Part shown: positions 2,594-61,999 of the stretch, in pieces
Layout of the letters: each line of letters starts with the position of its first letter
Numbering within the stretch: position 1 is the first letter of the stretch
Source of the DNA: Candidatus Magasanikiibacteriota bacterium
GTDB taxonomy: Bacteria > Patescibacteriota > Patescibacteriia > Magasanikbacterales > UBA922
Length of the DNA: 64,000 nucleotides
Direction of reading: 5' to 3'
Assembly (NCBI GenBank): GCA_041665025.1
Contig: JBAYJP010000004.1
Location: forward strand, 26,311-90,310
Notes under the pieces: model-generated
Told to the model about the DNA's origin: nothing
The model's database searches: none
What the model saw: the letters and a program-made list of their open reading frames with translations, nothing else
Program-made: the position numbers and the translations under genes

Positions 2594-2639
2594 TTTTAGA
2601 TCTGACTCGACTTCCGGTGGTGCGCGAATTTGACTTCGC

Positions 2640-2752
2640 GATGTCGTTTTGTGGCTTCGGGAATCTTTAAACAACAATCAGACATTTTAAAAAGAACAGA
2701 CGATTTTTAGTATTAATAAATTCTAAAAAATTCCCGAAACCACAAACGTCTT
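2640..2752. repeat. imperfect inverted repeat (REP-like long hairpin) just downstream of the Y1 transposase
   Basis: cgttttgtggcttcgggaatc at 2643-2663 matches the reverse complement of aattcccgaaaccacaaacg at 2731-2750, with a ~65-nt AT-rich spacer. Confidence 0.5.
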
Positions 2753-3070
2753 AAAATCGCCAGAAATAAAAAATCCAGCCTCTCGCTGGTTTTTAGTTTG
2801 TTTTTACCATGAACCATTCGGTACACGGTTTTTACACCAAATCCCAATCCGCCGTAGCAGATTTTGAGCTCACATACTGCACAGCAGATTGGGTCTGGTA
2901 ACCCCATCATAGGGGACCTTATAAAAAGAACAAAACCACTCTATAGAGCAGGAGATACCACGTACCCAGCGCGGCGTCTCCTTTTGGGTGAGACAACAGT
3001 ATAACACTATATTTTTATTTTGTTTAGCCAAAAATGTTGATAAGTCTACCATTCTTGTCATTCTTGCTTT

Positions 3071-4385: not shown

Positions 4386-4458
4386 TTTTATCTCAATGTA
4401 TCTAAACCTATCTCAATATATATAGAGATACATGGAGATAAGTTGAGATAGTAACTGT

Positions 4459-5073: not shown

Positions 5074-5177
5074 AGAAAAACGATAAGATAAAGCACGTAT
5101 CACATAACACATATCACATATCACATATCAAAATTGTTAAGTGTTACGTGATAAGTGTTATGTGATAATAAAATTTT

Positions 5178-6473: not shown

Positions 6474-6554
6474 TAATATGTACGAAATACGAAAATACGA
6501 AAGTAAATATGTAATTTTTGTAATTTTGTAATTTTCGTATTTCGTACATAAATT

Positions 6555-7643
6555 ATGCCAAAAAAGAAAAATAAAAAATCACAATCTCACGGTTTACCAG
6601 AAGTATTTCTTGAAAGACTAACCCGTATTGTTGGTCTTTCTTATTTTGAACAGATTAAAAGAACCTTTGTTGAGCGTCCGACTACATTTCGCGTGAATAC
6701 GATAAAAGCAAACCGACAAGAAATCTTGGAAATTCTACAACAGCAGGGGTTTAAAGTACGGCAAGTTCAGTGGTATAAGGACGCTTTTATTTTACTCAAT
6801 AAGACGAAACGCGAATTGACGGATTTGGATATGTATGACGAGGGGAAGATATATATTCAAAGTTTGGCAAGCATGATCCCACCATTAGTCTTGGATCCAC
6901 AACCAGGGGATAGGGTGTTAGATTTGACAGCCGCGCCAGGGAGCAAGACTTCACAGATAGCAGCAATGATGCGTAAACAAGGCGAGCTTGTGGCAAATGA
7001 TAAAAATAAAATACGCTTTTTTAAGTTGAAGCATAATGTTGAAGCGCTGGGTGTGGCGGAATTGGCTCTCCCCCTACAAGGGGGAGCAAGAGGGGGTCTG
7101 GATTACAAAAAAACGTCTAGTGATATTATAGACCCCTCCCAACCTCTCCTTGTAGGGGAGGAGTCATGGAAGTTCAATCTTCGCATGGAAGACGGTTATC
7201 ATCTGTGCAAAGAGTACCCCGAATATTTTGATAAAATAATCCTTGATGCACCATGCAGTGCCGAGACGCGTTTTGTCGAGACAAATATAAAGACATATGG
7301 ATATTGGAAAGAGAATAAAATAAAGGAAATGGTCTTTGCCCAACGCGGTTTGTTATTTGCCGCATGGAGTGCGCTCAAGCCTGGGGGGACGCTTGTGTAT
7401 TCTACGTGCACCTTTGCTCCAGAAGAAAACGAATTACAGATAACTAGATTTTTGGAGAAAATTACTAATGTTGAAATATGTAATATCGATGTCATAGATA
7501 TTAAAAAATTATTTATCGTTAAAGAATGGAAAGGGAGGGACATCGATAAAAACGTACAAAAAAAAGCGCTTCGTATTATGCCATCGAACGAGATTGAAGG
7601 GTTTTTTGTGGTTAAATTAAAGAAACTCGTAATTCATAATTAG
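6555..7643 (+). CDS. NOL1/NOP2/Sun-family rRNA m5C methyltransferase (RsmB/RsmF-like)
   Basis: SAM motif DLTAAPGSKTSQ and the catalytic motifs DAPCSAE and STCT. Carries an in-frame GC-rich palindromic insert at 7066-7163. Confidence 0.8.
   Translation: MPKKKNKKSQSHGLPEVFLERLTRIVGLSYFEQIKRTFVERPTTFRVNTIKANRQEILEILQQQGFKVRQVQWYKDAFILLNKTKRELTDLDMYDEGKIYIQSLASMIPPLVLDPQPGDRVLDLTAAPGSKTSQIAAMMRKQGELVANDKNKIRFFKLKHNVEALGVAELALPLQGGARGGLDYKKTSSDIIDPSQPLLVGEESWKFNLRMEDGYHLCKEYPEYFDKIILDAPCSAETRFVETNIKTYGYWKENKIKEMVFAQRGLLFAAWSALKPGGTLVYSTCTFAPEENELQITRFLEKITNVEICNIDVIDIKKLFIVKEWKGRDIDKNVQKKALRIMPSNEIEGFFVVKLKKLVIHN
7066..7163. repeat. GC-rich palindromic element in frame inside the rsmB-like CDS
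   Basis: ctccccctacaagggggag and ccttgtaggggagg inverted pairs plus a gggggtct...agacccc hairpin. Local GC is far above the surrounding CDS. Confidence 0.5.
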
Positions 7644-14480: not shown

Positions 14481-15707
14481 ATGTCAGTGCCAACATTCAT
14501 GGTAAAAAAACAAGATGGCACCCAAGTCAAAATGACATTGGACGAGTTTAAGGTATACCAACAGACACTAAAGCACTTGAGCACTAAAGCACTTGAGCAC
14601 AACGACCAACCTCTCAATCAGCCAGCTAAAGAAGTTGCAAAGAGTGATGACGTGCCAAAAGGAAAAATGGCTATAGTTGAAAAAAAGGAAATAAAACAAA
14701 AAAAAGAAGAATTGCCCATGGTATTGGGGACAGAAGCAGTGACAACGGTGAGTCCGGTGAAAGATGTATTTGTTGACGAAGCTAAATATGTACGAAATTC
14801 GAAAACTGCGAAAAATACGAAAGTAAACGAGAAAAATATTGTTGAAAAAGAGGTTAAAAAGCCTATTTCATTAGCTAAAGATGATTTTGTATCGTTATTA
14901 GAAGAAGATGAGGAAGATGTGCCTAAACCGCAAGGACAAGCAGTAACGATGAGTTCGTATGATGATGTGGTGAAAAAAATTATCACTGAAAGCGGAGTGC
15001 GTGTGCCCGCAGATCTGAAAGAGAGGCTTTCGTCGCTTATTTTGTCCTATATCAAACAAGTTCGTGATGAATACCAATTTATTGACTATGCAGATCGACC
15101 GGCACAAAGGGGAGGTGTGGGTTTGTCAAAAGATGATGCTTCAAAATTATTATCAATGATTAAAAAAACCAATACTCAGCCTGCTAAGCGTAGTTTAGAG
15201 ATTGTTACGGATTCTATTGTTACTAAACCCGCACAGAAAAGTTTGAATGTTATTACGGATTCCACCTCGGTTAGATCTATTGAACGAAGTCAAAAGATTA
15301 TTACGGATTCCGCTATTGATAAACCAATTGATATAGTACAGCCACGCAACGTGGTTCATGATATTGTCTCCATACCGCCTGAACAAAAAACAGTGGGACC
15401 AGAAGGAGAAATGAGTACGTTTGGATTATCAGATTTTCGTAGATTGGCCCGTGATCCTGCAAAAGCCCGCGACATGCTTTTTTCAAAGATTCAGGGGTGG
15501 AAAGCCGAGTCTTTTTTACTCTATATGAAAGCAGCACAGGCCTGGCACAAGAGTCCTCTCTATAGAGAATATCTTGACTTGACGGAGAATTCACTTAAAG
15601 AAAATACGCAAATTTCACAATTGTTGATCGAGCAAACAAAGGCTGGGGGGATGACATTTGGAGAATATAAAGAAATTGTTGAGTTGAATAGACAACTTAG
15701 TAACTAA
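14481..15707 (+). CDS. hypothetical protein with internal ~50-60-bp tandem repeats
   Basis: The ATG at 14481 follows the upstream stop. Three imperfect repeats (..ITDS..) span 15190-15330. Confidence 0.5.
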   Translation: MSVPTFMVKKQDGTQVKMTLDEFKVYQQTLKHLSTKALEHNDQPLNQPAKEVAKSDDVPKGKMAIVEKKEIKQKKEELPMVLGTEAVTTVSPVKDVFVDEAKYVRNSKTAKNTKVNEKNIVEKEVKKPISLAKDDFVSLLEEDEEDVPKPQGQAVTMSSYDDVVKKIITESGVRVPADLKERLSSLILSYIKQVRDEYQFIDYADRPAQRGGVGLSKDDASKLLSMIKKTNTQPAKRSLEIVTDSIVTKPAQKSLNVITDSTSVRSIERSQKIITDSAIDKPIDIVQPRNVVHDIVSIPPEQKTVGPEGEMSTFGLSDFRRLARDPAKARDMLFSKIQGWKAESFLLYMKAAQAWHKSPLYREYLDLTENSLKENTQISQLLIEQTKAGGMTFGEYKEIVELNRQLSN

Positions 15708-15720
15708 AAAATATTAAAAA

Positions 15721-15796
15721 TGTACGAAATTCGGAAACTACGAAATATTCGAAATACATTTTTTTCGTACCTTTCGCAGCTTTCGTATTTCGTACA
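15721..15796. repeat. TACGAAA-heptamer palindromic element (copy A)
   Basis: tgtacgaaat(t/a)cg(g)aaactacgaaatattcgaaatacatttttttcgtacctttcgcagctttcgtatttcgtaca. Near-identical to the copies at 16235 and 17488. Confidence 0.8.
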
Positions 15797-15799
15797 TGA

Positions 15800-16231
15800 A
15801 TGTATATGCAACAGTTCGTCATTCCACAATTTATCGATGTCGAAGACAAGATTTTTGGGCCAATCACCACACGTCAGTTTTTGATTTTGCTTGTGGCCGG
15901 CATTTGTATATTTTTATCCTACCGTTTTGCTGATCTTGCGTTGTTTATTGTCGTACTTGCCGTCATGGGGGGCTTGGCATTAGTGTTCGCATTTGTTAAA
16001 ATTAACGGACAGACGTTTCATTATTTTTTGTTAAATATTATTCAGACCTTGCGCAAGCCATCTTTGAGGATTTGGAGAAAATTTTATCATAAAAAAGAAT
16101 TAGAATTTTTGAGAAAACAAGTAACTGAAGAAAAAATTATTGAAGAAAAGGCAAAGCCCGTGCACAGAGAGAGAATTAGAGATTTGGCTCTGCTTGTTAA
16201 TACTGGTGGTTTTTATAAGCCAGAAGAATAA
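15800..16231 (+). CDS. PrgI-family (VirB3-like) conjugal-transfer membrane protein
   Basis: N-terminus VIPQFIDVEDKIFGPITTRQFLILL followed by two TM helices, typical of PrgI/VirB3-like proteins that sit upstream of VirB4. Confidence 0.55.
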   Translation: MYMQQFVIPQFIDVEDKIFGPITTRQFLILLVAGICIFLSYRFADLALFIVVLAVMGGLALVFAFVKINGQTFHYFLLNIIQTLRKPSLRIWRKFYHKKELEFLRKQVTEEKIIEEKAKPVHRERIRDLALLVNTGGFYKPEE

Positions 16232-16234
16232 TTA

Positions 16235-16310
16235 TGTACGAAATACGAAAACTACGAAATATTCGAAATACATTTTTTTCGTACCTTTCGCAGCTTTCGT
16301 ATTTCGTACA
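16235..16310. repeat. TACGAAA-heptamer palindromic element (copy B)
   Basis: More than 90% identical to copy A. Confidence 0.8.
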
Positions 16311-16322
16311 TAATATTATGTT

Positions 16323-16739
16323 ATGGACCAAGGAGGTAAACAATATACGCTAAGAAGAAATGATTTGATATATCCAGAATTGAGTTTTAAGATTAGTGGT
16401 GTTCTATTTAATGTGTTTAAACAGTTGGGCGGAGGTCATGAAGAAAAATACTACGAGAAAGCAGTGTCTATCGGTTTTACTAAAGGACAGATAAAGTTTA
16501 ACCGCCAATATTATGTTCCTCTAACGTATGAGGGTGAACATATTGGTAAATATTACTTAGATTTTTTAGTAGAGGGTAAGATAATATTGGAATTAAAAAG
16601 AGGAAAATATTTAAATGCACGTCTTATAGATCAGGTAACTAAATATTTGGAAACTTTAAAGTTACAATTGGCAATTATTGCATGTTTTACGAGCAATGGT
16701 GTAATAATAAAACGTATTATAAATCATAACATGCTGTAA
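16323..16739 (+). CDS. GxxExxY-family protein (PD-(D/E)xK-like)
   Basis: GGGHEEKYYEKAV matches the G-x-x-E-x-x-Y signature, and the length is ~140 aa. Flanked on both sides by TACGAAA elements. Confidence 0.6.
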   Translation: MDQGGKQYTLRRNDLIYPELSFKISGVLFNVFKQLGGGHEEKYYEKAVSIGFTKGQIKFNRQYYVPLTYEGEHIGKYYLDFLVEGKIILELKRGKYLNARLIDQVTKYLETLKLQLAIIACFTSNGVIIKRIINHNML

Positions 16740-16744
16740 TACAC

Positions 16745-16777
16745 TTTCGAAATTTCGTAGCTTTCGAATTTCGTACA
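16745..16777. repeat. TACGAAA-family half element (right arm only)
   Basis: tttcgaaatttcgtagctttcgaatttcgtaca. Confidence 0.5.
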
Positions 16778-16782
16778 TATAT

Positions 16783-17469
16783 ATGGATGATAAAGTCAAA
16801 CAAAAAAAGAGTAATTCCAAGCCGAGCACACAGGCCCATCTTCCTATTGCAGAAATACGGGAAGGTGTGGTGGTCTTGAAAGATGGAACATTGCGCGCGG
16901 TTCTCATGACCTCGAGTATTAATTTTGCGTTGAAATCAGAAGATGAACAGAATGCTCTTATTTCTTCGTATGTAGGATTTCTCAATTCTCTCGATTTTCC
17001 TGTGCAAATTGTCATCCAGTCGCGCCGATTGCAGATTAAGCCATATTTGGAGAAGCTTTCCACGCTCGAACGAGAGCAGAAAAACGAATTACTGCGTGTG
17101 CAAATTGCCGATTATCGTGCATTTATTGAGGAGTTGGTAGACATTGGAAAAATTATGACAAAAAAATATCTCGTAGTAGTCCCATATGATCCTATTTCAA
17201 ATAGCAAAAAGAGTTTTTGGTCTCGATTTAAAGAGGTAATAAAACCGGCTATTTCGTTGAGGCTTAAAAATGATCGTTTTCAAAAACGAAGGCAAGATTT
17301 GGATATGAGAGTCCGGCAAGTCGAAGGCGGCCTTTCATCTATGGGACTCCAAGTGGTCCAACTTGATACACAAGCGCTCATTGAATTGTATTACAGCACC
17401 TACAATCCCGATATTTCTTTTGCAGAGACCCTAGGAGATATTGATAAACAACAAGTAGAAACCATTTAA
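16783..17469 (+). CDS. VirB4/TraC-family N-terminal segment (first part of a split VirB4)
   Basis: LPIAEIREGVVVLKDGTLRAVL...FPVQIVIQSRR resembles the start of VirB4-type proteins. It is in the same frame (mod 3) as the next ORF, and the two are separated by a 102-bp element. Confidence 0.5.
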   Translation: MDDKVKQKKSNSKPSTQAHLPIAEIREGVVVLKDGTLRAVLMTSSINFALKSEDEQNALISSYVGFLNSLDFPVQIVIQSRRLQIKPYLEKLSTLEREQKNELLRVQIADYRAFIEELVDIGKIMTKKYLVVVPYDPISNSKKSFWSRFKEVIKPAISLRLKNDRFQKRRQDLDMRVRQVEGGLSSMGLQVVQLDTQALIELYYSTYNPDISFAETLGDIDKQQVETI

Positions 17470-17470
17470 T

Positions 17471-17565
17471 TATGTACGAATTAATTATGTACGAAATACG
17501 AAAACTACGAAATATCCGAAATACATTTTTTTCGTACCTTTCGCAGCTTTCGTATTTCGAACATA
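17471..17565. repeat. TACGAAA-heptamer palindromic element (copy C) separating the two VirB4 ORFs
   Basis: Near-identical to copies A and B, with a short 5' partial duplication atgtacgaattaatt. Confidence 0.8.
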
Positions 17566-17571
17566 TCTATT

Positions 17572-19452: not shown

Positions 19453-19491
19453 ATAAGTAGCTAAGTTGGCTAAGTTACCTAAGTTGCGGAT
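19453..19491. repeat. left inverted repeat flanking four-helix-bundle gene (ctaagtt x3)
   Basis: taagtagctaagttggctaagttacctaagttg. Its partner lies at 19846-19895. Confidence 0.6.
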
Positions 19492-19845
19492 ATGGGGACG
19501 TATAAAGATTTGGATGTATATAATAGATCATTTAAATGTTCTATTGCGATTTATAAATTAAGTTTAGAATTGCCAAAATATTTGCAGTATGATATTGCAG
19601 ATGATATACGAAGGGCAGCGCGGTCAATTCCATCCAATATTGCTGAAGGATATGGTAGAGATAAATCTAGTGCTGACAAAATAAATTTTCTTAGAACCTC
19701 GCTTGGTTCTAATGATGAGGTATTATTTAATCTTGAGTTTATATTTCAACTAGGTTTAATCAAAAGAGAAAGATATGAAAAAGCAGTCGAGCAGTATACC
19801 ATTATAGGGGCAGAGCTTTTTAAACTCATTCAGACATTAAAATAA
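19492..19845 (+). CDS. four-helix-bundle protein (23S rRNA intervening-sequence protein family)
   Basis: The 117-aa protein has SIPSNIAEGYGR at its core, which is the family hallmark. Confidence 0.8.
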   Translation: MGTYKDLDVYNRSFKCSIAIYKLSLELPKYLQYDIADDIRRAARSIPSNIAEGYGRDKSSADKINFLRTSLGSNDEVLFNLEFIFQLGLIKRERYEKAVEQYTIIGAELFKLIQTLK

Positions 19846-19895
19846 TTTTCAACTTAGATAACTCAGGTACTTAGTTAACTTAGCTACTTACGTAT
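19846..19895. repeat. right inverted repeat flanking four-helix-bundle gene
   Basis: caacttagataactcaggtacttagttaacttagctactta is the reverse complement of the left repeat. Confidence 0.6.
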
Positions 19896-20486: not shown

Positions 20487-20559
20487 CGTAGTTATAAAGT
20501 TGAAAGTTATAAAGTTTGTAAAGTTCAAATCAATTTTTCATAATTCATCATTAATCTTA

Positions 20560-25391: not shown

Positions 25392-25481
25392 TGGCGGAGA
25401 GATAGGGATTCGAACCCTAGGTCCACTTTCGCGGACTGCAGTTTAGTAAACTGCTGCTATCGACCACTCAGCCATCTCTCC
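25392..25481 (-). tRNA. tRNA-Ser-like, class II, anticodon loop reads UUACUAA (anticodon ACU, atypical A34)
   Basis: Perfect 7-bp acceptor GGAGAGA/UCUCUCC, T-arm UAGGG-UUCGAAU-CCCUA, long variable arm, CCA encoded. Confidence 0.6.
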
Positions 25482-25555
25482 TCGCAGTTATAAAGTTGAA
25501 AGTTTATAAAGTTATAACGTAACAATATTGGACATTATAACTTTTAACTTCGGCG

Positions 25556-26209: not shown

Positions 26210-26213
26210 CTAT

Positions 26214-26339
26214 GTGCGAACTACGAAATTATACGAAAGTACGAACTACGGAAATTTCGTAATTCGTACTTTCGTAAACTTTTCGCGAAAAGCGACGTGG
26301 TCGCCTCGCGACTTTACGTCGTAATTTCGTATATCACAT
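26214..26339. repeat. TACGAAA-family palindromic element (long variant)
   Basis: tatgtgcgaactacgaaattatacgaaagtacgaactacgg...tttcgtaattcgtactttcgtaa plus a GC palindrome gcgacgtggtcgcctcgc. Confidence 0.6.
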
Positions 26340-28376
26340 ATGGACCTTAAAGGTTTTTTTTCTAATCACATAAAACCAATACTTTTTTCTTGGCGTCGTG
26401 TTGGTGTTTCTGTTCTTGTCGTTGCTGGGCTTGTGGGTATTTTTTTATTGGCGGGTTTTGGGTATGTGAAAGCATATGAAGGAAAAGTGCTACCCGGGAT
26501 TTTTATTGGGGATATATCAATCGGGGGAATGGACAAAGAGGAGCTGGGTAATTTTATCCGCCAGATGAATACTAAACTTTTGGATGAAGGTATTTTTGTT
26601 TCATTCCAGTCTGATGGTCAGAAAAAAGAATTCACTATCAACCCAGTCACCGTGGGGGATCAGACTGCCGAAGAATTGATTACATTAGACGTAGATAAAG
26701 AAATATCATACCTTTTGCAGTATGGACGCGGAGGTGGTTGGTTTGACACAGTCGTAAATACAGTCTTGACGCGCGTGCGTCAACCTCATCTCACATTACA
26801 AACAGTACAAATACAGAAAAATTATATTCTAGATCAGATTCGTGGATCTCTTGAGGGGTACATTGTTGAGCCTGTTGATTCAAATATACGTATAAAGACG
26901 CTCGCACCTCTTACGTATGAAGTGACATCGTCTACTCCGGGAAATACGTTTGATTATGAACAGGTATTAAGTACGGTGAAACGCTCATGGTCAGAATTAA
27001 CTTCTCCACAAGTAGCTATTACTTCATACACAAAAAATCCAACCATTGTTGAATCTGATGTGCAAGGAATGAGTAACCGATTACAAGCGGTTTTTACACC
27101 GGGCCGGCTTGATATACTTTTTACTGATCCATACACTACACGTGAATATACGTGGTTTGTTTCTCCAGAAGAAATGGCTTCGTGGATTGAAGTTGAGCGC
27201 GTATCTGATGGTTCACTCGTGTTTGGCCTCAACTATGAGCGTACCGTAGCTTTTTTGAAAAAAGATATTAGTGACGTCGTGAATGTGGAAGCTGAAGATG
27301 CAAAATTTAACGTGGCTTCAAATGGTAAGGTGGTAGAATTCCAAGGTTCGCGTCCTGGGGTTACGGTTGACCTTGAAAAAACATATGCAGATATCAATCA
27401 AGCATTTATTGGGCGTACATTGCATGACGAAGGGGTAGTGAAGGCAATCACGCTCACTACCATGCAGGTCGAACCAAATATAAAGACAGGCGAGGTGAAT
27501 GACTTGGGAATTTCTGAAGTTCTTGGTTTTGGCCATTCCAAATTTCGTGGCAGTCCAGGGAATCGTATAAAAAATATTCGTCATGCGGCATTTGATAAAT
27601 TGAATGGACTTTTGATCAAACCTGGTCAAGAATTTTCTTTGATACAAGCTTTGCAACCTTTTACGGTAGAAGATGGATATTTGCCTGAGCTGGTCATAAA
27701 AGGGGATAGGATAGTGCCAGAATTGGGTGGGGGTTTGTGCCAAGTGGGTACGACCATGTTTCGTGCTGCTATGAACTCCGGCCTTGTTATCACTGAACGT
27801 AGAAATCATTCGTTGGTTGTCCCTTATTACAATGATTTATCCAATGGAAATCCGGGGACAGATGCGACGATTTACGAACCTCATCCGGACTTTCGATTTT
27901 TAAATGACACAGGTAAACACATCCTCATAACTTCAGAATTCAATACACAAACATCTGACTTGTATTTTTATTTTTGGGGTACAAACGATGGCAGGAAAGG
28001 ATATTATTCTGCTCCGCAAGTTTCAAGGTGGATTCCCGCTGGTGAACCTCGTATGATAGAGACTACAGAACTTCCTGTAGGGAAAAAAGAGTGTCAGGAA
28101 GTACATATGGGGGCAGAGGCTAGTTTTACCTACACACGTGAACTTGCGTCTGGAGAAAAAATACAAAAAGTCTTTGAAAGCTATTATCGTCCGCTTCCTC
28201 AAATTTGTTTGGTAGGCGTAGAAAAAGTGGCTGAGACTACATGTCCAGAAGGACAAGAATGTCCAACAACTGAAATCCCTTCAGACACACCAATTGGCGA
28301 ACAGGGTTTTGATCCAAATGTTGACTTGTGGGGGAGTAATCCTCCAGCTGAAGCTGGTACGAGTACGGTTAATTAG
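26340..28376 (+). CDS. VanW-family protein with N-terminal TM anchor
   Basis: VanW core GGGLCQVGTTMFRAAMNSGL and preceding G5-like beta region. Length 678 aa. Confidence 0.75.
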   Translation: MDLKGFFSNHIKPILFSWRRVGVSVLVVAGLVGIFLLAGFGYVKAYEGKVLPGIFIGDISIGGMDKEELGNFIRQMNTKLLDEGIFVSFQSDGQKKEFTINPVTVGDQTAEELITLDVDKEISYLLQYGRGGGWFDTVVNTVLTRVRQPHLTLQTVQIQKNYILDQIRGSLEGYIVEPVDSNIRIKTLAPLTYEVTSSTPGNTFDYEQVLSTVKRSWSELTSPQVAITSYTKNPTIVESDVQGMSNRLQAVFTPGRLDILFTDPYTTREYTWFVSPEEMASWIEVERVSDGSLVFGLNYERTVAFLKKDISDVVNVEAEDAKFNVASNGKVVEFQGSRPGVTVDLEKTYADINQAFIGRTLHDEGVVKAITLTTMQVEPNIKTGEVNDLGISEVLGFGHSKFRGSPGNRIKNIRHAAFDKLNGLLIKPGQEFSLIQALQPFTVEDGYLPELVIKGDRIVPELGGGLCQVGTTMFRAAMNSGLVITERRNHSLVVPYYNDLSNGNPGTDATIYEPHPDFRFLNDTGKHILITSEFNTQTSDLYFYFWGTNDGRKGYYSAPQVSRWIPAGEPRMIETTELPVGKKECQEVHMGAEASFTYTRELASGEKIQKVFESYYRPLPQICLVGVEKVAETTCPEGQECPTTEIPSDTPIGEQGFDPNVDLWGSNPPAEAGTSTVN

Positions 28377-28430
28377 TTTGTATTTTTTAAGTTGTTTTTT
28401 GTAAGATTTAATCCGTATAGATTATTTTTT

Positions 28431-28521
28431 TCTTCGGCAGCGCAACTCACCCCGTCCCGAATACTCGGGACACCCCTCTCTTACTAAGAGAGGGGTCGGG
28501 GGTGAGTTGTGTGGAAGAAAA
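28431..28521. repeat. GC-rich nested-hairpin element (family with 60175-60290)
   Basis: Outer stem gcaactcacccc/ggggtgagttg encloses hairpins gtcccgaatactcgggac and cccctctcttactaagagagggg. Confidence 0.7.
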
Positions 28522-28902
28522 AATAGACTTGTATTTTTATCGAACAGGAAAATTTCGTAATTGGGACTATTGAACTTGTCGATTATATATTAAAATTGGC
28601 TAATTTAAGCCAATTTTTTGTTTTTCCCACAGGTGGTGTCTTGACAATAATGCTTGGGTATGTTATTATATGCTGTTATTTAACAGTAGACGAAAGTAAA
28701 AGTGATATAGAGGAATATGTGTTTTGTTGTCCTGTACAACGTAAACACATACTCTCCTGTATCGGTTTGTTAGTTTGTTGAATGTGGTTGTACAGTAATA
28801 GTAAAGAACACAATTCAATATACATCTCCCCAAAGAGACGAGGATTCAGAATCGTACATATTTAGAAGAAGTTTTGTGAAATAAATATGTATAATCCTGT
28901 AT

Positions 28903-30514: not shown

Positions 30515-30548
30515 TTAATAGTAAGATCAGAAGATCGAAAGATCATTT
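30515..30548. repeat. inverted repeat flanking four-helix-bundle gene (aagatc x3)
   Basis: taagatcagaagatcgaaagatcat. Its partner lies at 30899-30942 (atgatcttttgatcttacgatctta). Confidence 0.6.
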
Positions 30549-30899
30549 TTTGAGTGAATTAATATACAAATTAAGATCTTTTGTAAGTTGTTTATACAGA
30601 TTATTTATATGAATAAATTCTTCTTTTGTTAAATAATTTTTGCCGAATGCTACAGACAAGTGACTTCTTGCTTCGGCTATTTCACCGCGTGATATATACA
30701 GAATTCTTTTTTTGTCTGCATAATAAAATCTTCCATGAGATTCAGCTATATTCGCAATGATACTATTTGCAGATCGTACTGTCTGTGACACGAGAGCATA
30801 TTTTTCCCATTCAGGATATTTTTCCGTAATGGTATATACATACATAAGAGCATTATAGCCATTTTTCCATATACCAAGCTCATAAAACTCTTTGTACAT
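30543..30899 (-). CDS. four-helix-bundle protein (23S rRNA intervening-sequence protein family), second copy
   Basis: 118 aa with ANIAESHGRFYYADK... pattern, homologous to the protein at 19492-19845. Confidence 0.8.
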   Translation of the reverse strand: MYKEFYELGIWKNGYNALMYVYTITEKYPEWEKYALVSQTVRSANSIIANIAESHGRFYYADKKRILYISRGEIAEARSHLSVAFGKNYLTKEEFIHINNLYKQLTKDLNLYINSLKK

Positions 30900-30942
30900 A
30901 TATGATCTTTTGATCTTACGATCTTATAATCATATAGTACTT
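30899..30942. repeat. inverted repeat partner (aagatc-type)
   Basis: Reverse complement of 30515-30548 with 2-3 mismatches. Confidence 0.6.
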
Positions 30943-31920: not shown

Positions 31921-32174
31921 ATGCGGTAAACAACTTGTATTAGTCCAGGTAGAACACAGATTTAACAGATGAAACAGATTTTAACAGATCCGTTTGTATC
32001 AGTTTGATCCGTTAAATCCGTGTTCTATTAAGTAGTCTTAGTAAGACCCATATCTCTTACGAGAGCTAGACAGTATATAAGAGTTTTATATTGTTGTCAA
32101 GCTCTCATAGAGGGTGTATACTATCTCTGTTTTTATTTGAATTTTGACATTTGAGTTTTGAGTTTGTCATAAAT

Positions 32175-36309: not shown

Positions 36310-36362
36310 ATTTAGATACGAACTACGAAAGCATACGAAATTACGAACTACGGATAGAATAG
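36310..36362. repeat. TACGAAA-family element (divergent, partial)
   Basis: atacgaactacgaaagcatacgaaattacgaactacgg. Confidence 0.5.
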
Positions 36363-37911: not shown

Positions 37912-37997
37912 AAGTTGTAAAGTTTTGTATATAACTTACAACATTATAACTTTATAACTTGGAACATTATAACTTTACGACTTTAATTATTTTTAGT

Positions 37998-39843: not shown

Positions 39844-40287
39844 ATGTCATTATATGACACGCTGTTACAATCTCAGCAAGAGGCACGAAAAAATCATGAG
39901 CAAGAGCGGCTTTCAATATTGCAAGTCGCTCTTGCTGCAATTAAAAATGAAAAGATAAACAAACAAAAAGATTTATCCGATGCAGATGTTGTGTCTGTTA
40001 TTGGTAAACAGATAAAACAACTCCGTGATGCGCTTGTCGATTTTGAAAAAGCGCAACGCAGTGATCTCGTCGACAAAACAAAAAAGGAAATCGAATTATT
40101 GTCAGTGTACGTTCCGCGTCAATTGTCCGAAGATGAGATACGCCCTATTGCCAAAGAAGTTATTTCTGCATTGCCACCCGGAAGCACTCCTAATTTTGGT
40201 AGTGTGATGGGTATGGTGATGCAAAAAGTTAAGGGTCAGGCAGACGGCGCGACCGTACAAAAAATTGTTAAAGAGTTACTCGTATAA
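39844..40287 (+). CDS. yqeY: GatB/YqeY-domain protein
   Basis: About 147 aa with LQVALAAIKN...MGMVMQKVKGQADG pattern. Usual neighbour of rpsU. Confidence 0.8.
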   Translation: MSLYDTLLQSQQEARKNHEQERLSILQVALAAIKNEKINKQKDLSDADVVSVIGKQIKQLRDALVDFEKAQRSDLVDKTKKEIELLSVYVPRQLSEDEIRPIAKEVISALPPGSTPNFGSVMGMVMQKVKGQADGATVQKIVKELLV

Positions 40288-40289
40288 TA

Positions 40290-40357
40290 TGTACGAAATT
40301 CGAAAGCTACGAAACATACGAAATTTCGGACCTTTCGCAACTTTCGAATTTCGTACA
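40290..40357. repeat. TACGAAA-family palindromic element (divergent copy)
   Basis: tgtacgaaattcgaaagctacgaaacatacgaaatttcggacctttcgcaactttcgaatttcgtaca. Confidence 0.7.
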
Positions 40358-40387
40358 TAATTTAATTCAGAGTCTAAGGTTTTTCCC

Positions 40388-55243: not shown

Positions 55244-55657
55244 ATGAATTTAAAAAAAACTGTTATACTATTTAGTGTGGGTGTTCTCCTTGTGCTGTTG
55301 GGGACAGGTCTATGGTTTTTTGTATCTCGTGGAAAGAAAATTGTTACTGATAAACAAGATAAGGACGGAACAGCTTCGTCCACATCGCAAGGAACTATTA
55401 CAACTACAGACATACCTGAATGGTATGCAACTGACAAAGACGCGGATGGTATAGAAGATACAAAAGAAGATGAATTGGGATTAGATAAATGGGCAGCTGA
55501 TACTGATGGAGATGGGATTTCTGACTTTGTAGAAATCAATGAATTCAAGACAGACCCAAGAAATCCTGATACGGACGGTGATGGTTTTTGGGATGGAGTT
55601 GAACTTGAAAGTGGATATAATCCACTAGGAGAAGGGAAACTTATAACTTCAAGTTGA
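55244..55657 (+). CDS. TM-anchored protein with thrombospondin-type-3-like DxDxDG calcium-binding repeats
   Basis: N-terminal TM, then DKDADGIEDTKEDE, DTDGDGISD and DTDGDGFWDGVE repeats. C-terminal GYNPLGEGKL. Confidence 0.6.
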   Translation: MNLKKTVILFSVGVLLVLLGTGLWFFVSRGKKIVTDKQDKDGTASSTSQGTITTTDIPEWYATDKDADGIEDTKEDELGLDKWAADTDGDGISDFVEINEFKTDPRNPDTDGDGFWDGVELESGYNPLGEGKLITSS

Positions 55658-55758
55658 AGTTATAAAGTTCCAAGTTATAAAGTTGTAAAGTTCATAAAAT
55701 ATTTGTTACTTTCAACTTTATAACTTTATAACTTTATAACTCTATAACTCTATAACAT

Positions 55759-56665: not shown

Positions 56666-56715
56666 ATGTACGAAATACGAAAACTGCGAAAGGTACGAAA
56701 AAATATATTTCGTGT
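56666..56715. repeat. TACGAAA-family element (partial)
   Basis: tgtacgaaatacgaaaactgcgaaaggtacgaaaaaatatatttcgtg. Confidence 0.5.
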
Positions 56716-56728
56716 ATATAATTAATGT

Positions 56729-60124: not shown

Positions 60125-60174
60125 TAAAAATTGAAAGTTGAGACATCATCCGAGAGGGTGGTGTTTTTTATTTT

Positions 60175-60290
60175 CCTTCGGCGATGCAACTCATCCCCTT
60201 ACCCCTTCTCTTAAAAAGAGAAGGGAATATATTTTCGTCGCCCCTCTCTTCGTAAGAGAGGGGGGGTGAGTTGCGTGGCCGAAAGGAGGG
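60175..60290. repeat. GC-rich nested-hairpin element (family with 28431-28521)
   Basis: Outer ttcggc/gccgaa and gcaactcatcccc/gggggtgagttgc stems enclose cttctcttaaaaagagaag and cccctctcttcgtaagagagggg hairpins. Confidence 0.7.
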
Positions 60291-60509
60291 AGTTAGAGGG
60301 TGGTTTGCGTTGCAGAGTAAAAGAAAAAGAACTTCATAGTATACAAATTGTATTCAATTCCTTGACACATGTTTTTATAATCGTTACACTAATACCATCA
60401 AAAAGTTTTTGAATAGTTTATTTGTATAATGAACAAAAATAGTGTTCAAATAAATTTTTTTCTCTAAACTTTATAACATTATAACTTTAAAATTTTTAAC
60501 TATCACTTT

Positions 60510-61799: not shown

Positions 61800-61840
61800 A
61801 CGAAGTTGAAAGTTGTAAAGTTAAAAGTTATAAAGTTGAC

Positions 61841-61868
61841 AAAAGCCATCATTCTGTATGGCTTTTGT
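61841..61868 (+). terminator. rho-independent terminator after ftsZ
   Basis: aaagccat-cattctgt-atggcttt followed by tgtgt. AT-rich stem, moderate strength. Confidence 0.5.
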
Positions 61869-61999
61869 GTATTTTACACATTTTGTGTTTAAGAAAGATA
61901 ATGTGGTATACTAACAAAGTTAAATGTCATAATGTTCCAAGTTATAACGTACGAATTGGTAACTTTATAACTTTTTACTTTCAACTTTATAACTTTCGT

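Follow-up and report, generated by a model that had tools for sequence, protein, structure and literature searches.

What are the near-identical palindromes, built of TACGAAA and TTTCGTA heptamers, that lie between the genes of a T4SS-like operon in a Candidatus Magasanikbacteria (CPR) genome, and how did they come to be there? In the 64,000 nucleotide stretch of this genome that was analysed, referred to here as the window, the sequence TACGAAATACGAAA occurs 20 times with 2 or fewer mismatches, against 0.86 expected, and none of 100 shuffles reached 20. The family has at least 10 copies or fragments in these 64 kb. All of those reported in the preliminary description, where they were seen as a MITE-like family, are indeed present. 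The hairpins and half hairpins are as follows.

6478 to 6549, forward strand: divergent gene-less copy between an AsnRS/AspRS-type synthetase gene and rsmB, 76-78% identical to copies A, B and C.
14785 to 14822, forward strand: half copy inside a coding sequence, in-frame in the 408 amino acid gene at 14481-15707, 92% identical to 40286-40323.
15720 to 15797, forward strand: copy A, a 78 bp gene-less hairpin between the 408 amino acid T4SS-operon gene and prgI, 97% identical to copy B.
16234 to 16311, forward strand: copy B, a full hairpin directly upstream of a cargo gene at 16323-16739.
17470 to 17564, forward strand: copy C, the hairpin at 17487-17564 with a preceding duplicate of its end, between a traC-like gene and virB4.
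26212 to 26341, forward strand: composite nested copy (TACGAAC sub-type), with two hairpins inside an outer stem.
36317 to 36354, forward strand: half copy, left arm only, 92% identical to 26217-26252.
40289 to 40358, forward strand: gene-less copy between yqeY and a T4SS-pilin/Big_5 gene, 79-81% identical to copies A, B and C.
56666 to 56720, reverse strand: inverted copy, internally deleted, which has lost most of one arm between repeated units.

Among copies A, B and C the identity is 95-97%, well within the 90% and over that had been claimed; with the copies at 40289-40358 and 6478-6549 it is 76-81%. At least seven copies other than these three are divergent or partial. The gene-less copies are 70-88 bp, with outer arms of 17-26 bp that are conserved across 42 arms and outer ends of the form ATGTAC...GTACAT. 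The T7 run that was described at the centre of every copy is found in A, B and C only. Of the copies that were described as near-perfect hairpins, 16745-16779 is a right arm only and 36317-36354 a left arm only. The left arm of the copy at 56666-56720 is the reverse complement of the copy B right arm with 1 mismatch. Within the composite copy, the outer stem encloses an inner hairpin of the same unit and a second, GC-rich hairpin. Immediately 5' of copy C is a 14 nt duplicate of its own end (TAATTATGTACGAA), and genome L112 has the same end duplication. The half copy at 14785-14822 is read as KYVRNSKTAKNTK within a variable linker of the 408 amino acid gene, a segment that is missing from the orthologue in relative L002; the window element has no stop codons in two frames. 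It is therefore not strictly true that all copies are intergenic. The true start of PrgI is at 15806, a longer ORF call having given no exact-protein match. The exact 29-mer of the A/B/C sub-type had 0 matches in a metagenome collection that apparently does not include the source contig.

The junctions that hold copies A, B and C were compared with those in relatives L002, L004 and L005. In L002, with a VirB4 that is 90% identical, the gap between the 408 amino acid gene and prgI is 3 nt, that between prgI and traC is 6 nt, and that between traC and virB4 is 287 nt and holds a different hairpin, of TCTAATT units. L004, an 86% relative, has other inserts, with no TACGAAA copy at any of the three junctions. 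In L005, an 82% relative, prgI overlaps traC, and only 1 nt separates traC from virB4. The cargo gene is missing from the prgI-traC junction in L002 and L005. Since the closest relatives have junctions of 1-6 nt or other inserts, the hairpins are insertions rather than ancestral structure, and the comparison shows that they have inserted into the few bases that separate one gene's stop codon from the following start codon in tightly packed operons. This agrees with the preliminary description in its view of a dispersed inverted-repeat family gained by insertion, as opposed to terminators that evolved independently. The same copies at orthologous sites, which would have pointed to ancient structural elements, were looked for and are not the case in L002, L004 or L005. 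At four-fold degenerate sites the window and its closest relative are identical at 114 of 256, which is near saturation; with an identity of 95-97%, A, B and C must therefore have been copied or homogenised recently. Recent mobility, as had been proposed from the high identity, thus stands as far as recent copying or homogenisation is concerned, with the alternative that near-identity within 2 kb could reflect local gene conversion rather than movement. With neutral sites already saturated in the nearest relative available, the comparison showed no gain or loss at strain level. No target-site duplication flanks the copies in the window or the gene-less copies in L012, L026, L039, L042 and L091.

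The element has a full-length partner, which was overlooked by the preliminary description. Between copy B and the supposed partial copy at 16745 there is a PDDEXK_3 gene.

16323 to 16739, forward strand: cargo gene for a 138 amino acid GxxExxY/PDDEXK_3 protein (Pfam PF13366, E 1.2e-24; TIGR04256, E 1.7e-25).
16745 to 16779, forward strand: right arm R', closing the cargo-bearing cassette; its reverse complement, ATGTACGAAATTCGAAAGCTACGAAATTTCGAAAG, fits the left-arm consensus.

The full cassette consists of two inverted arrays, about 26-40 bp, of T(A/G)CGAAA heptamers around a GxxExxY (PDDEXK_3) gene of ~135 amino acids, with an arm consensus of (ATT)ATGTACGAAATACGAAA-RCT-RCGAAA. In the window, as in L121, the layout is left arm, right arm, ORF, and second right arm (L-R-ORF-R'), and the left arm of copy B could alternatively pair with the right arm at 16745-16779. 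Cargo genes are co-oriented with their neighbours at 10 of 10 independent sites. The 138 amino acid protein has a minimal PD-(D/E)XK nuclease fold, the triad of which (D80, E90, K92) is invariant across 39 homologues. Its AF2 model (pLDDT 90.7) has Cas4 and lambda-exonuclease-type nucleases as best fold matches. These are generic PD-(D/E)XK nucleases only, at TM about 0.45-0.5, and therefore no specific activity can be inferred for the protein; a sequence search of the PDB gave no relative.

GxxExxY proteins, to which the product of this partner gene belongs, are not known to act as transposases or to be linked to DNA mobility, and there is no recognised transposase in the cassette. The RAYT-like gene at 2021-2593, named earlier as an example of a possible cognate transposase, matches Y1_Tnp (Pfam, E 1.8e-7) and the REP-associated tyrosine transposase family (NCBIfam, E 3.9e-12), but at 46 bits it falls below the NCBIfam cut-off of 80, no TACGAAA units were found on either side of it, and it was rejected as a partner. 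An integron cassette with attC (GTTRRRY core sites, intI and attI) was not recognised either, given the ATGTAC...GTACAT ends and no integrase among the scanned window proteins, which are part of the ORFs.

Besides the window, five or more other CPR genomes have a PDDEXK_3 gene bracketed by TACGAAA-type arms. A genome scan with the arm pattern gave 109 matches, 35 of them loci with true four-unit arms and the remainder chance 17-mer matches. Left arm, PDDEXK_3 ORF and right arm were found in L078, L068, L112 and L086, where the proteins match that of the window at E 1e-48 to 1e-58. An unbiased retrieval, starting from the protein, found TACGAAA arms in L117, TGCGAAA arms in L116, TTCGAAT arms in L118, and a TACAAAT arm in L119. 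Several of the matched genomes carry a 'Gammaproteobacteria' label, which was rejected as mislabelling, as these genomes share CPR synteny with the window, and their proteins are 44-76% identical to its own.

Genes with identical 26 nt arms encode proteins that are 56-70% identical, while those with unrelated arms are about 30% identical. The retrieved loci show arm sequence co-diverging with the protein lineage, through TACGAAA, TGCGAAA, TTCGAAT and TACAAAT. The gene-less hairpin in L116 (3953-4040) is of the TGCGAAA variant, as are the arms of its resident gene; gene-less hairpins are thus shown to carry the resident gene's own arm sequence. The host sites include prgI-traC in the window, lemA-M48 in L068, L078 and L112, a pilin cluster in L116, dhh-smc in L026, and hisS-rpsU in L063, from which the same arms and gene are shown to travel together to different places.

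The TACGAAA family is not alone in this design. Two further cassettes in the window have other arms and another type of gene.

19454 to 19890, forward strand: CTAAGTT arrays (19454-19486 and 19850-19890) around a 23S_rRNA_IVP gene at 19492-19845.
30520 to 30932, reverse strand: AAGATC arrays around a second 23S_rRNA_IVP gene, at 30543-30899, between clpP and a DHH gene.

The product of 19492-19845 is a four-helix bundle, with a homologue that is 81% identical in L121, at another host site, ybaB-recR, and also with CTAAGTT arms. At the clpP-DHH junction L002 has 35 nt with no insert, and L004 has a AAGTTATAA hairpin. At loci fetched with the AAGTTATAA arm, 9 of 11 IVP genes are within 160 nt of an arm, and 5 of the 6 IVP genes examined have arrays on both sides. 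At least seven arm types co-exist in the 64 kb window. On its sequence features the TACGAAA family is part of a wider class, in which inverted arrays of short units bracket small genes of rRNA intervening-sequence type. The same arm design thus serves cargo of two families with no relation to each other, one a nuclease and the other a four-helix bundle, which speaks against arms that are simply the recognition sites of one enzyme.

Taken together, the TACGAAA/TTTCGTA palindromes are best read, at a probability of roughly 0.6, as the cargo-less form of an inverted-repeat cassette that carries a GxxExxY nuclease gene. The cassette is apparently selfish and is widespread in Magasanikbacteria and other CPR bacteria, and A, B and C are seemingly young local copies beside a resident cargo gene. 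The cassette may spread by a cut-and-copy process, either homing or transposition without target duplication, for which its own PD-(D/E)XK nuclease reading the heptamer arrays would be the simplest driver. Recombination or slippage between the repeated arm units would remove the cargo and leave gene-less copies, and the L-R-ORF-R' layouts, seen twice, may be intermediates of this loss. The element would be co-transcribed with the operon and fold into a stem of 20-37 bp, which RNase III probably cuts, by analogy with the rRNA intervening sequences that have the same cargo families; such a cut, it is proposed, would mean that the cistrons on either side are hardly harmed by the insertion. Against this reading are the missing target-site duplication and transposase, the one arm design around two kinds of cargo, the possible gene conversion among A, B and C, mismatch patterns that show no selection on the sense-strand RNA, and the occurrence of differing arm types at the same junctions, which could mean in-place turnover of a pre-existing hairpin.

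A bolder extension, which must be regarded as doubtful, is that two very abundant families of small bacterial genes, GxxExxY and the four-helix bundle (23S_rRNA_IVP, Avd-like), serve as cargo or engine for an undescribed class of mobile cassette. Such cassettes would have lineage-specific, co-evolving arrays, would insert without target duplication into stop/start junctions and rRNA helices, would be cut out of transcripts as RNase III 'pseudo-introns', and would shed gene-less hairpins in large numbers. Nothing relevant to these families as mobile cassettes, or to CPR palindromic repeats, was found in the literature beyond the papers on rRNA intervening sequences.

It is also conceivable, if unlikely, that the hairpins came first and the genes later. 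In that case the palindromes would arise and turn over in place, through slippage and arm-to-arm correction, and small selfish genes (GxxExxY, four-helix bundle, GIY-YIG) would home into matching loops, with the gene-less copies being empty landing sites. The different arm types at the same junctions in different genomes fit this, as does the way in which the heptamers of both arms all change together between lineages, as array homogenisation predicts. Partly duplicated arms are frequent (L086, L112, L116 and window copy C), and L-R-ORF-R' resembles an ORF with one arm set beside a complete hairpin. Gene-less copies also far outnumber those with cargo, which is present in 4 of the 35 true-arm TACGAAA loci and 9 of 119 AAGTTATAA loci. 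However, near-identical hairpins of a single type at many unrelated junctions, which in relatives are 1-6 nt, are left unexplained. In addition, 26 nt arms stay identical across genomes in which the cargo proteins are only 56-70% identical, so constraint or transfer is indicated, not free drift.

A role for the host, with the hairpins kept as terminators, attenuators, or stabilising or processing hairpins for expression of the T4SS-like operon, is very unlikely. The copies do fold strongly as RNA, at -28 to -37 kcal/mol with z of -6 to -11 against shuffles (copy A, -28.3 kcal/mol, z -6.3; copy B, -36.7 kcal/mol, z -11; 40289-40358, -32.5 kcal/mol), and the stems of 20-37 contiguous pairs are in principle sufficient for RNase III. 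They are positioned exactly between cistrons, several in or near T4SS-like genes in both the window and L116, and the outer ends have an outward-facing promoter-like match, TTCGCA-16 nt-CATAAT. Yet promoter-like matches in the region number 26 against a shuffle expectation of 23.1, which is equal. An intrinsic (Rho-independent) terminator, suggested earlier, was rejected: the AT-rich stems are followed by ATAAT.. and a start codon rather than a T-run, the terminator scan calls none of the copies, and normal GC-rich T-run terminators are present elsewhere in the window. The antisense strand folds better than the sense strand in A, B, C and 40289, and G.U versus A.C mismatches give 35 sense-wobble and 35 antisense-wobble positions, with no bias towards selection on the sense-strand RNA. 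An Rfam search of the window gave only tRNAs at the gathering threshold and no rRNA. One copy is inverted and one is within a coding sequence, and the same operon in relatives has hairpin-free junctions of 1-6 nt.

Tandem 7-9 bp units, direct and then inverted, are the design of the omega heptad operators and of the TP228 parH centromere. This match raises the idea, scarcely a probable one, that the heptamer is the binding unit of a small DNA-binding protein (e.g. ribbon-helix-helix, of omega/ParG/MetJ type) and the hairpin incidental. The arm units are conserved while the linkers vary, the units all change in concert between lineages, and the TATCACA heptads arrayed at 5098-5167 fit the WATCACW heptad of omega. 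However, no such regulator was found adjoining the arrays, and a matching number of regulators would be required for the seven or more arm types within 64 kb of an about 1 Mb genome. The genes that the arrays bracket are of selfish type, the arrays do not sit at operon starts, and they are absent from the orthologous operons of relatives. Least credible is a reading as REP/REPIN-type elements that the window's RAYT-like Y1 (IS200-like) transposase would mobilise in trans. Two inverted ~35 nt arms in one hairpin do resemble a REPIN, and the missing target duplication suits HUH-type single-strand transposition, but the 64 kb have a single RAYT-like gene for seven or more arm types, the genes bracketed by the arms in six or more genomes are PDDEXK_3 genes, and there is no conserved GTAG-type 5' tetranucleotide.

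The cassette reading gives two large orphan families, GxxExxY/PDDEXK_3 and the four-helix-bundle '23S rRNA IVS protein', a concrete and testable genomic role. The rRNA intervening sequences, for long without an explanation, become connected through it to a wider group of cassettes, which colonise mRNA operons as well. It also bears on how selfish DNA can persist in the extremely compact genomes of CPR bacteria, where intergenic space and Shine-Dalgarno sites are nearly absent. For annotation, it matters that such hairpins break assemblies, shift start-codon calls, and mimic terminators or regulatory sites. If the parallel change in arm units reflects recognition by the protein, a natural series of matched protein/DNA recognition pairs would be available. 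If the doubtful reading of a new mobile-cassette class were true, it would involve a new mobility mechanism, either based on a PD-(D/E)XK nuclease or RNA-templated, and the rRNA intervening sequences would be one special case of it.

Several known systems share part of this design. The omega repressor operators of pSM19035 and the TP228 parH site resemble the arms in their runs of 7-8 bp units, direct then inverted, but no ribbon-helix-helix partner was found here, and the window arrays bracket genes and are dispersed repeats. The Rickettsia palindromic elements (RPE) are like the half copy at 14785-14822 in being palindromic repeats in-frame in a protein-coding gene, whereas most window copies are intergenic and RPEs have no associated cargo gene. 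REPINs, as inverted doublets of ~20-40 nt repeats that form one hairpin, have the same architecture as the TACGAAA copies: two inverted repeats of ~35 nt in one hairpin of ~80 nt without target duplication. The REPIN/RAYT system also has many gene-less copies and one or few protein-coding copies bracketed by the same repeats, but the bracketed gene in the cassette is PDDEXK_3 (four-helix bundle for other arms), not a Y1 transposase, and there is no GTAG head.

The MITEs, such as the Correia/NEMIS elements of Neisseria, are like the hairpins in being short and non-coding with terminal inverted repeats, and in being dispersed in multiple copies that vary in presence between relatives. They are also intergenic and hairpin-forming, have outward promoter-like ends, and are co-transcribed, as is predicted for the window copies. 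The hairpins differ in having no target-site duplication and terminal repeats that are internally repetitive, and their full-length partner encodes a predicted PD-(D/E)XK nuclease rather than a known transposase.

It is the rRNA intervening sequences that share the cargo. ORF-bearing 23S rRNA intervening sequences have a terminal stem, of 28 bp in Coxiella, and an S23p/IVP ORF, with RNase III cleavage within the stem (PMC4990558), and rRNA insertions in the CPR contain 23S_rRNA_IVP ORFs (PMC11270868). The window elements differ from these in being between protein-coding cistrons, and once inside one, rather than in rRNA helices 9, 25 or 45. Their arms are tandem arrays of one short unit, they have many dispersed gene-less copies per genome, and their processing by RNase III is predicted only, whereas the rRNA sequences are excised by this enzyme. 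Nevertheless, the intervening sequences of Leptospira and Coxiella, with S23p/23S_rRNA_IVP and GxxExxY ORFs, and the window cassettes both have a small ORF from the same two families within terminal inverted repeats, which pair into a stem longer than 20 bp. Both exist in ORF-less and ORF-bearing versions, both have the ORF co-oriented with the host transcript, and both have a sporadic distribution that suggests horizontal spread.

The palindromes belong to an element family built of inverted arrays, with gene-bearing and gene-less forms, whose members are acquired between one gene's stop codon and the next start codon. The window lies within a 321.6-kb contig from a Candidatus Magasanikbacteria (CPR/Patescibacteria) genome. 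Its flagged part, a T4SS-like operon, carries a TrbL-like giant gene, two unknown genes, prgI, a traC-like gene and virB4 and is broken by two small genes, one GxxExxY/PDDEXK_3 and one four-helix-bundle.

TACGAAA/TTTCGTA copies and small genes in the window
6478-6549 and 40289-40358: divergent copies
14785-14822: half copy, in-frame inside the 408-aa gene 14481-15707
15720-15797: copy A, 78-bp palindrome, central T7
16234-16311: copy B, 78-bp palindrome, central T7
16323-16739: GxxExxY/PDDEXK_3 gene, within the T4SS-like operon
16745-16779: right arm alone
17487-17564: copy C, 78-bp palindrome, central T7
19492-19845: four-helix-bundle '23S rRNA intervening-sequence protein' gene, within the T4SS-like operon
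26212-26341: nested composite copy
30543-30899, minus strand: second four-helix-bundle gene, between clpP and a DHH gene
36317-36354: left arm alone
56666-56720: inverted copy, one arm mostly lost

With two or fewer mismatches, TACGAAATACGAAA matches the window 20 times, against 0.86 expected by chance, and the elements exist much as the preliminary description of a MITE-like family had them. Copies A, B and C are 95-97% identical to one another and only 76-81% identical to the two divergent copies. As RNA, each palindrome has a folding energy of -28 to -37 kcal/mol, with z-scores between -6 and -11 relative to shuffled sequences. The listed partial copies are present, two of them as single arms, one inverted and partly deleted and one a nested composite; the central T7 ascribed to every copy is found in A, B and C but not in the others. 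All copies had been called intergenic, but the half copy, previously unlisted, lies within a reading frame, in a linker missing from the closest orthologue of that gene. In A, B, C and 40289-40358 the element begins with an ATG 2-19 nt past the host stop codon and has two frames without a stop codon.

Orthologous operons were compared at VirB4 identities of 90% (L002/L003), 86% (L004) and 82% (L005/L006). L002 has neither small gene, with only 3 nt between the 4xx-aa gene and prgI and 6 nt between prgI and traC; its traC-virB4 gap contains a hairpin of different units, TCTAATT. In L005 prgI and traC overlap, and 1 nt separates traC from virB4. L004 carries another PDDEXK_3 gene between prgI and traC; it is 26% identical to that of the window, and CTGATTA units form a perfect inverted repeat around it. 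The hairpins are insertions. These junctions are tight or filled by other inserts, so the pattern that would have spoken against recent mobility, the same copies at every orthologous site, does not occur. Four-fold degenerate sites are almost saturated between the window and L002, with 114 of 256 identical; A, B and C must therefore either be much younger than the species split or undergo homogenisation. The element copies show no target-site duplication. In at least two genomes a second copy of the element's terminal 11-14 nt adjoins it, as ATGTACGAATT|ATGTACGAAAT... (window 17470-17486, the right end of L112 and the left end of L063), which may be the footprint of a joining reaction.

Shine-Dalgarno motifs are nearly absent, with GGAG, GAGG or AGGA at -5 to -16 in about 4 of the 44 genes with start codons in the window; starts usually follow T/A-rich ..(G/C/T)AT or ..TAT. 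A hairpin inserted just upstream of a start codon may be tolerated for this reason.

When species-representative genomes were scanned for ATGTACGAAATWCGAAA, 109 stretches came back, where about 140 single chance matches are expected for this 17-mer; true four-unit arms occur at 35 loci from roughly ten CPR assemblies. The 'Gammaproteobacteria' labels on several assemblies are contradicted by CPR synteny and 44-76% protein identity to the window. Complete hairpins without a gene, 77-88 bp long, are present at eleven loci. Four loci (L078, L068, L112, L086) have a left arm, a PDDEXK_3 ORF and a right arm, their proteins matching that of the window at E 1e-48 to 1e-58; the window version runs from hairpin B through the ORF to the right arm. 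The arms are part of a cassette that carries a gene, and the family is common to CPR lineages at different host sites. In a second search by protein, independent of arm sequence, the flanks of four homologues were read. L117 has TACGAAA arms; L116 (64% identity) has ACATGCGAAATGCGAAAGATTGCGAAA..., all units TGCGAAA; L118 (57%), at the lemA|M48 host site shared with L068, L078 and L112, has TTCGAAT throughout, its arms identical at 35 of 37 positions; L119 (50%) has TACAAAT units. A gene-less hairpin one junction downstream in L116 has the TGCGAAA variant of the resident gene's arms. Proteins encoded between identical 26-nt arms are merely 56-70% identical, and those between unrelated arms about 30%. 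Arm sequence co-diverges with cargo lineage. Positions 18-26 (R-C-T-R-C-G-A-A-A), not imposed by the search pattern, are 74-95% conserved among 42 arms, with variable linkers and loops. PDDEXK_3 is catalogued as a family of unknown function; the catalytic triad D80/E90/K92 is invariant among homologues, and structure prediction gives a minimal nuclease fold that has no close relative among solved structures.

Genes enclosed by inverted arrays are a general design. Inverted arrays also occupy many of the window's intergenic regions, with units of TATCTC, TATCACA, CTAAGTT, AAGATC, AACAGAT or AAGTTATAA. Both four-helix-bundle genes are enclosed, by CTAAGTT (the first) and AAGATC (the second). A homologue 81% identical to the first occupies another host site, ybaB|recR in L121, and again has CTAAGTT units, in the order left arm, right arm, ORF, second right arm; further homologues have GAAGTT (75% identity) and CTGGTA units (64%). 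At each of 10 independent sites the cargo gene reads in the same direction as the genes beside it. The AAGTTATAA octamer forms a second abundant family (20487-20524; 25483-25550; 37912-37987; 55655-55754; 60456-60491; 61803-61842 with 61956-61995), for which no cargo gene is found within the window. On metagenome contigs these arrays enclose four-helix-bundle (23S_rRNA_IVP) genes: a scan for the arm pattern gave 119 loci, in which 9 of 11 such genes lie within 160 nt of an arm, and 5 of 6 examined have arrays on both sides.

One AAGTTATAA hairpin separates two of three adjacent tRNA-Ser genes, one of which is at 25392-25481, minus strand (anticodon ACT, ARAGORN). Single hairpins occur at 4390-4455 (TATCTC, period about 10) and 31950-32030 (AACAGAT, period 9-10), the latter in the divergent dhh|smc region; the hairpin that L026 has there is of the TACGAAA type. 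At 5098-5167, between recO and an AsnRS/AspRS-type gene, five TATCACA heptads precede inverted copies; the unit presumably corresponds to WATCACW, the heptad to which the omega repressor of pSM19035-type plasmids binds. GC-rich palindromes (CCCCTC.../...GAGGGG) at 7063-7166, 28429-28523 and 60170-60300 are a separate family, the first lying within the rsmB frame (residues ~170-204, 'LALPLQGG...') in a segment variable among relatives. Small GIY-YIG genes (~87-99 aa) occur in L116 (5399-6096), L121 (1650-2090) and L126 (3089-3352). The first two are set within extended GC-rich inverted repeats (..GTCATTGCGAG..), making this the third family of small genes arranged as a gene in a hairpin; no comparable repeat is evident around the L126 gene.

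Gene-less copies would derive from cassettes through loss of the ORF between repeated arm units. Layouts with a second right arm, read as intermediates of this loss, are seen in two cases, and arms are commonly duplicated or deleted in part. Spread would be a cut-and-copy process without target duplication, most simply dependent on the cassette's own PD-(D/E)XK nuclease. The main weakness of nuclease-driven spread is that an unrelated cargo family, the probably non-catalytic four-helix bundle, shares the arm design. The main rival is that the hairpins are the primary, self-renewing entities, into which genes home.

Mismatches show no sense-strand wobble bias (35 versus 35), and antisense RNA of A, B, C and 40289-40358 folds 4-12 kcal/mol better than sense, because inner-stem A.C mismatches of the coding strand become G.U pairs; the sequences thus offer no positive evidence for selection on an mRNA hairpin. 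The RAYT-like gene at 2021-2593, suggested as cognate transposase, scores below the family cut-off and is not flanked by elements. The 477-nt gene-free stretch after it (2594-3070) has a strong predicted structure of -128 kcal/mol and a 21-nt inverted repeat, and matches no Rfam family at the gathering threshold. A terminator role, also suggested, fails: a scan for terminators picks out no copy, and the stems are not followed by a T-run. GC-rich terminators of the usual kind are present elsewhere in the window.

Full-text searches on both families, their accession numbers and CPR palindromic repeats turned up no account of the arrangement. The elements are best seen as a variant of two known kinds, MITE/REPIN-like repeats and IVS-like cassettes, and there is a realistic chance that they represent a new mobility system. 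In 23S rRNA intervening sequences that bear an ORF, the same two cargo families sit inside a terminal stem of ~28 bp, which RNase III cuts (PMC4990558; PMC11270868). By analogy, the element would be co-transcribed and fold into a stem cut by RNase III, the likeness being GxxExxY and four-helix-bundle cargo inside a terminal stem.
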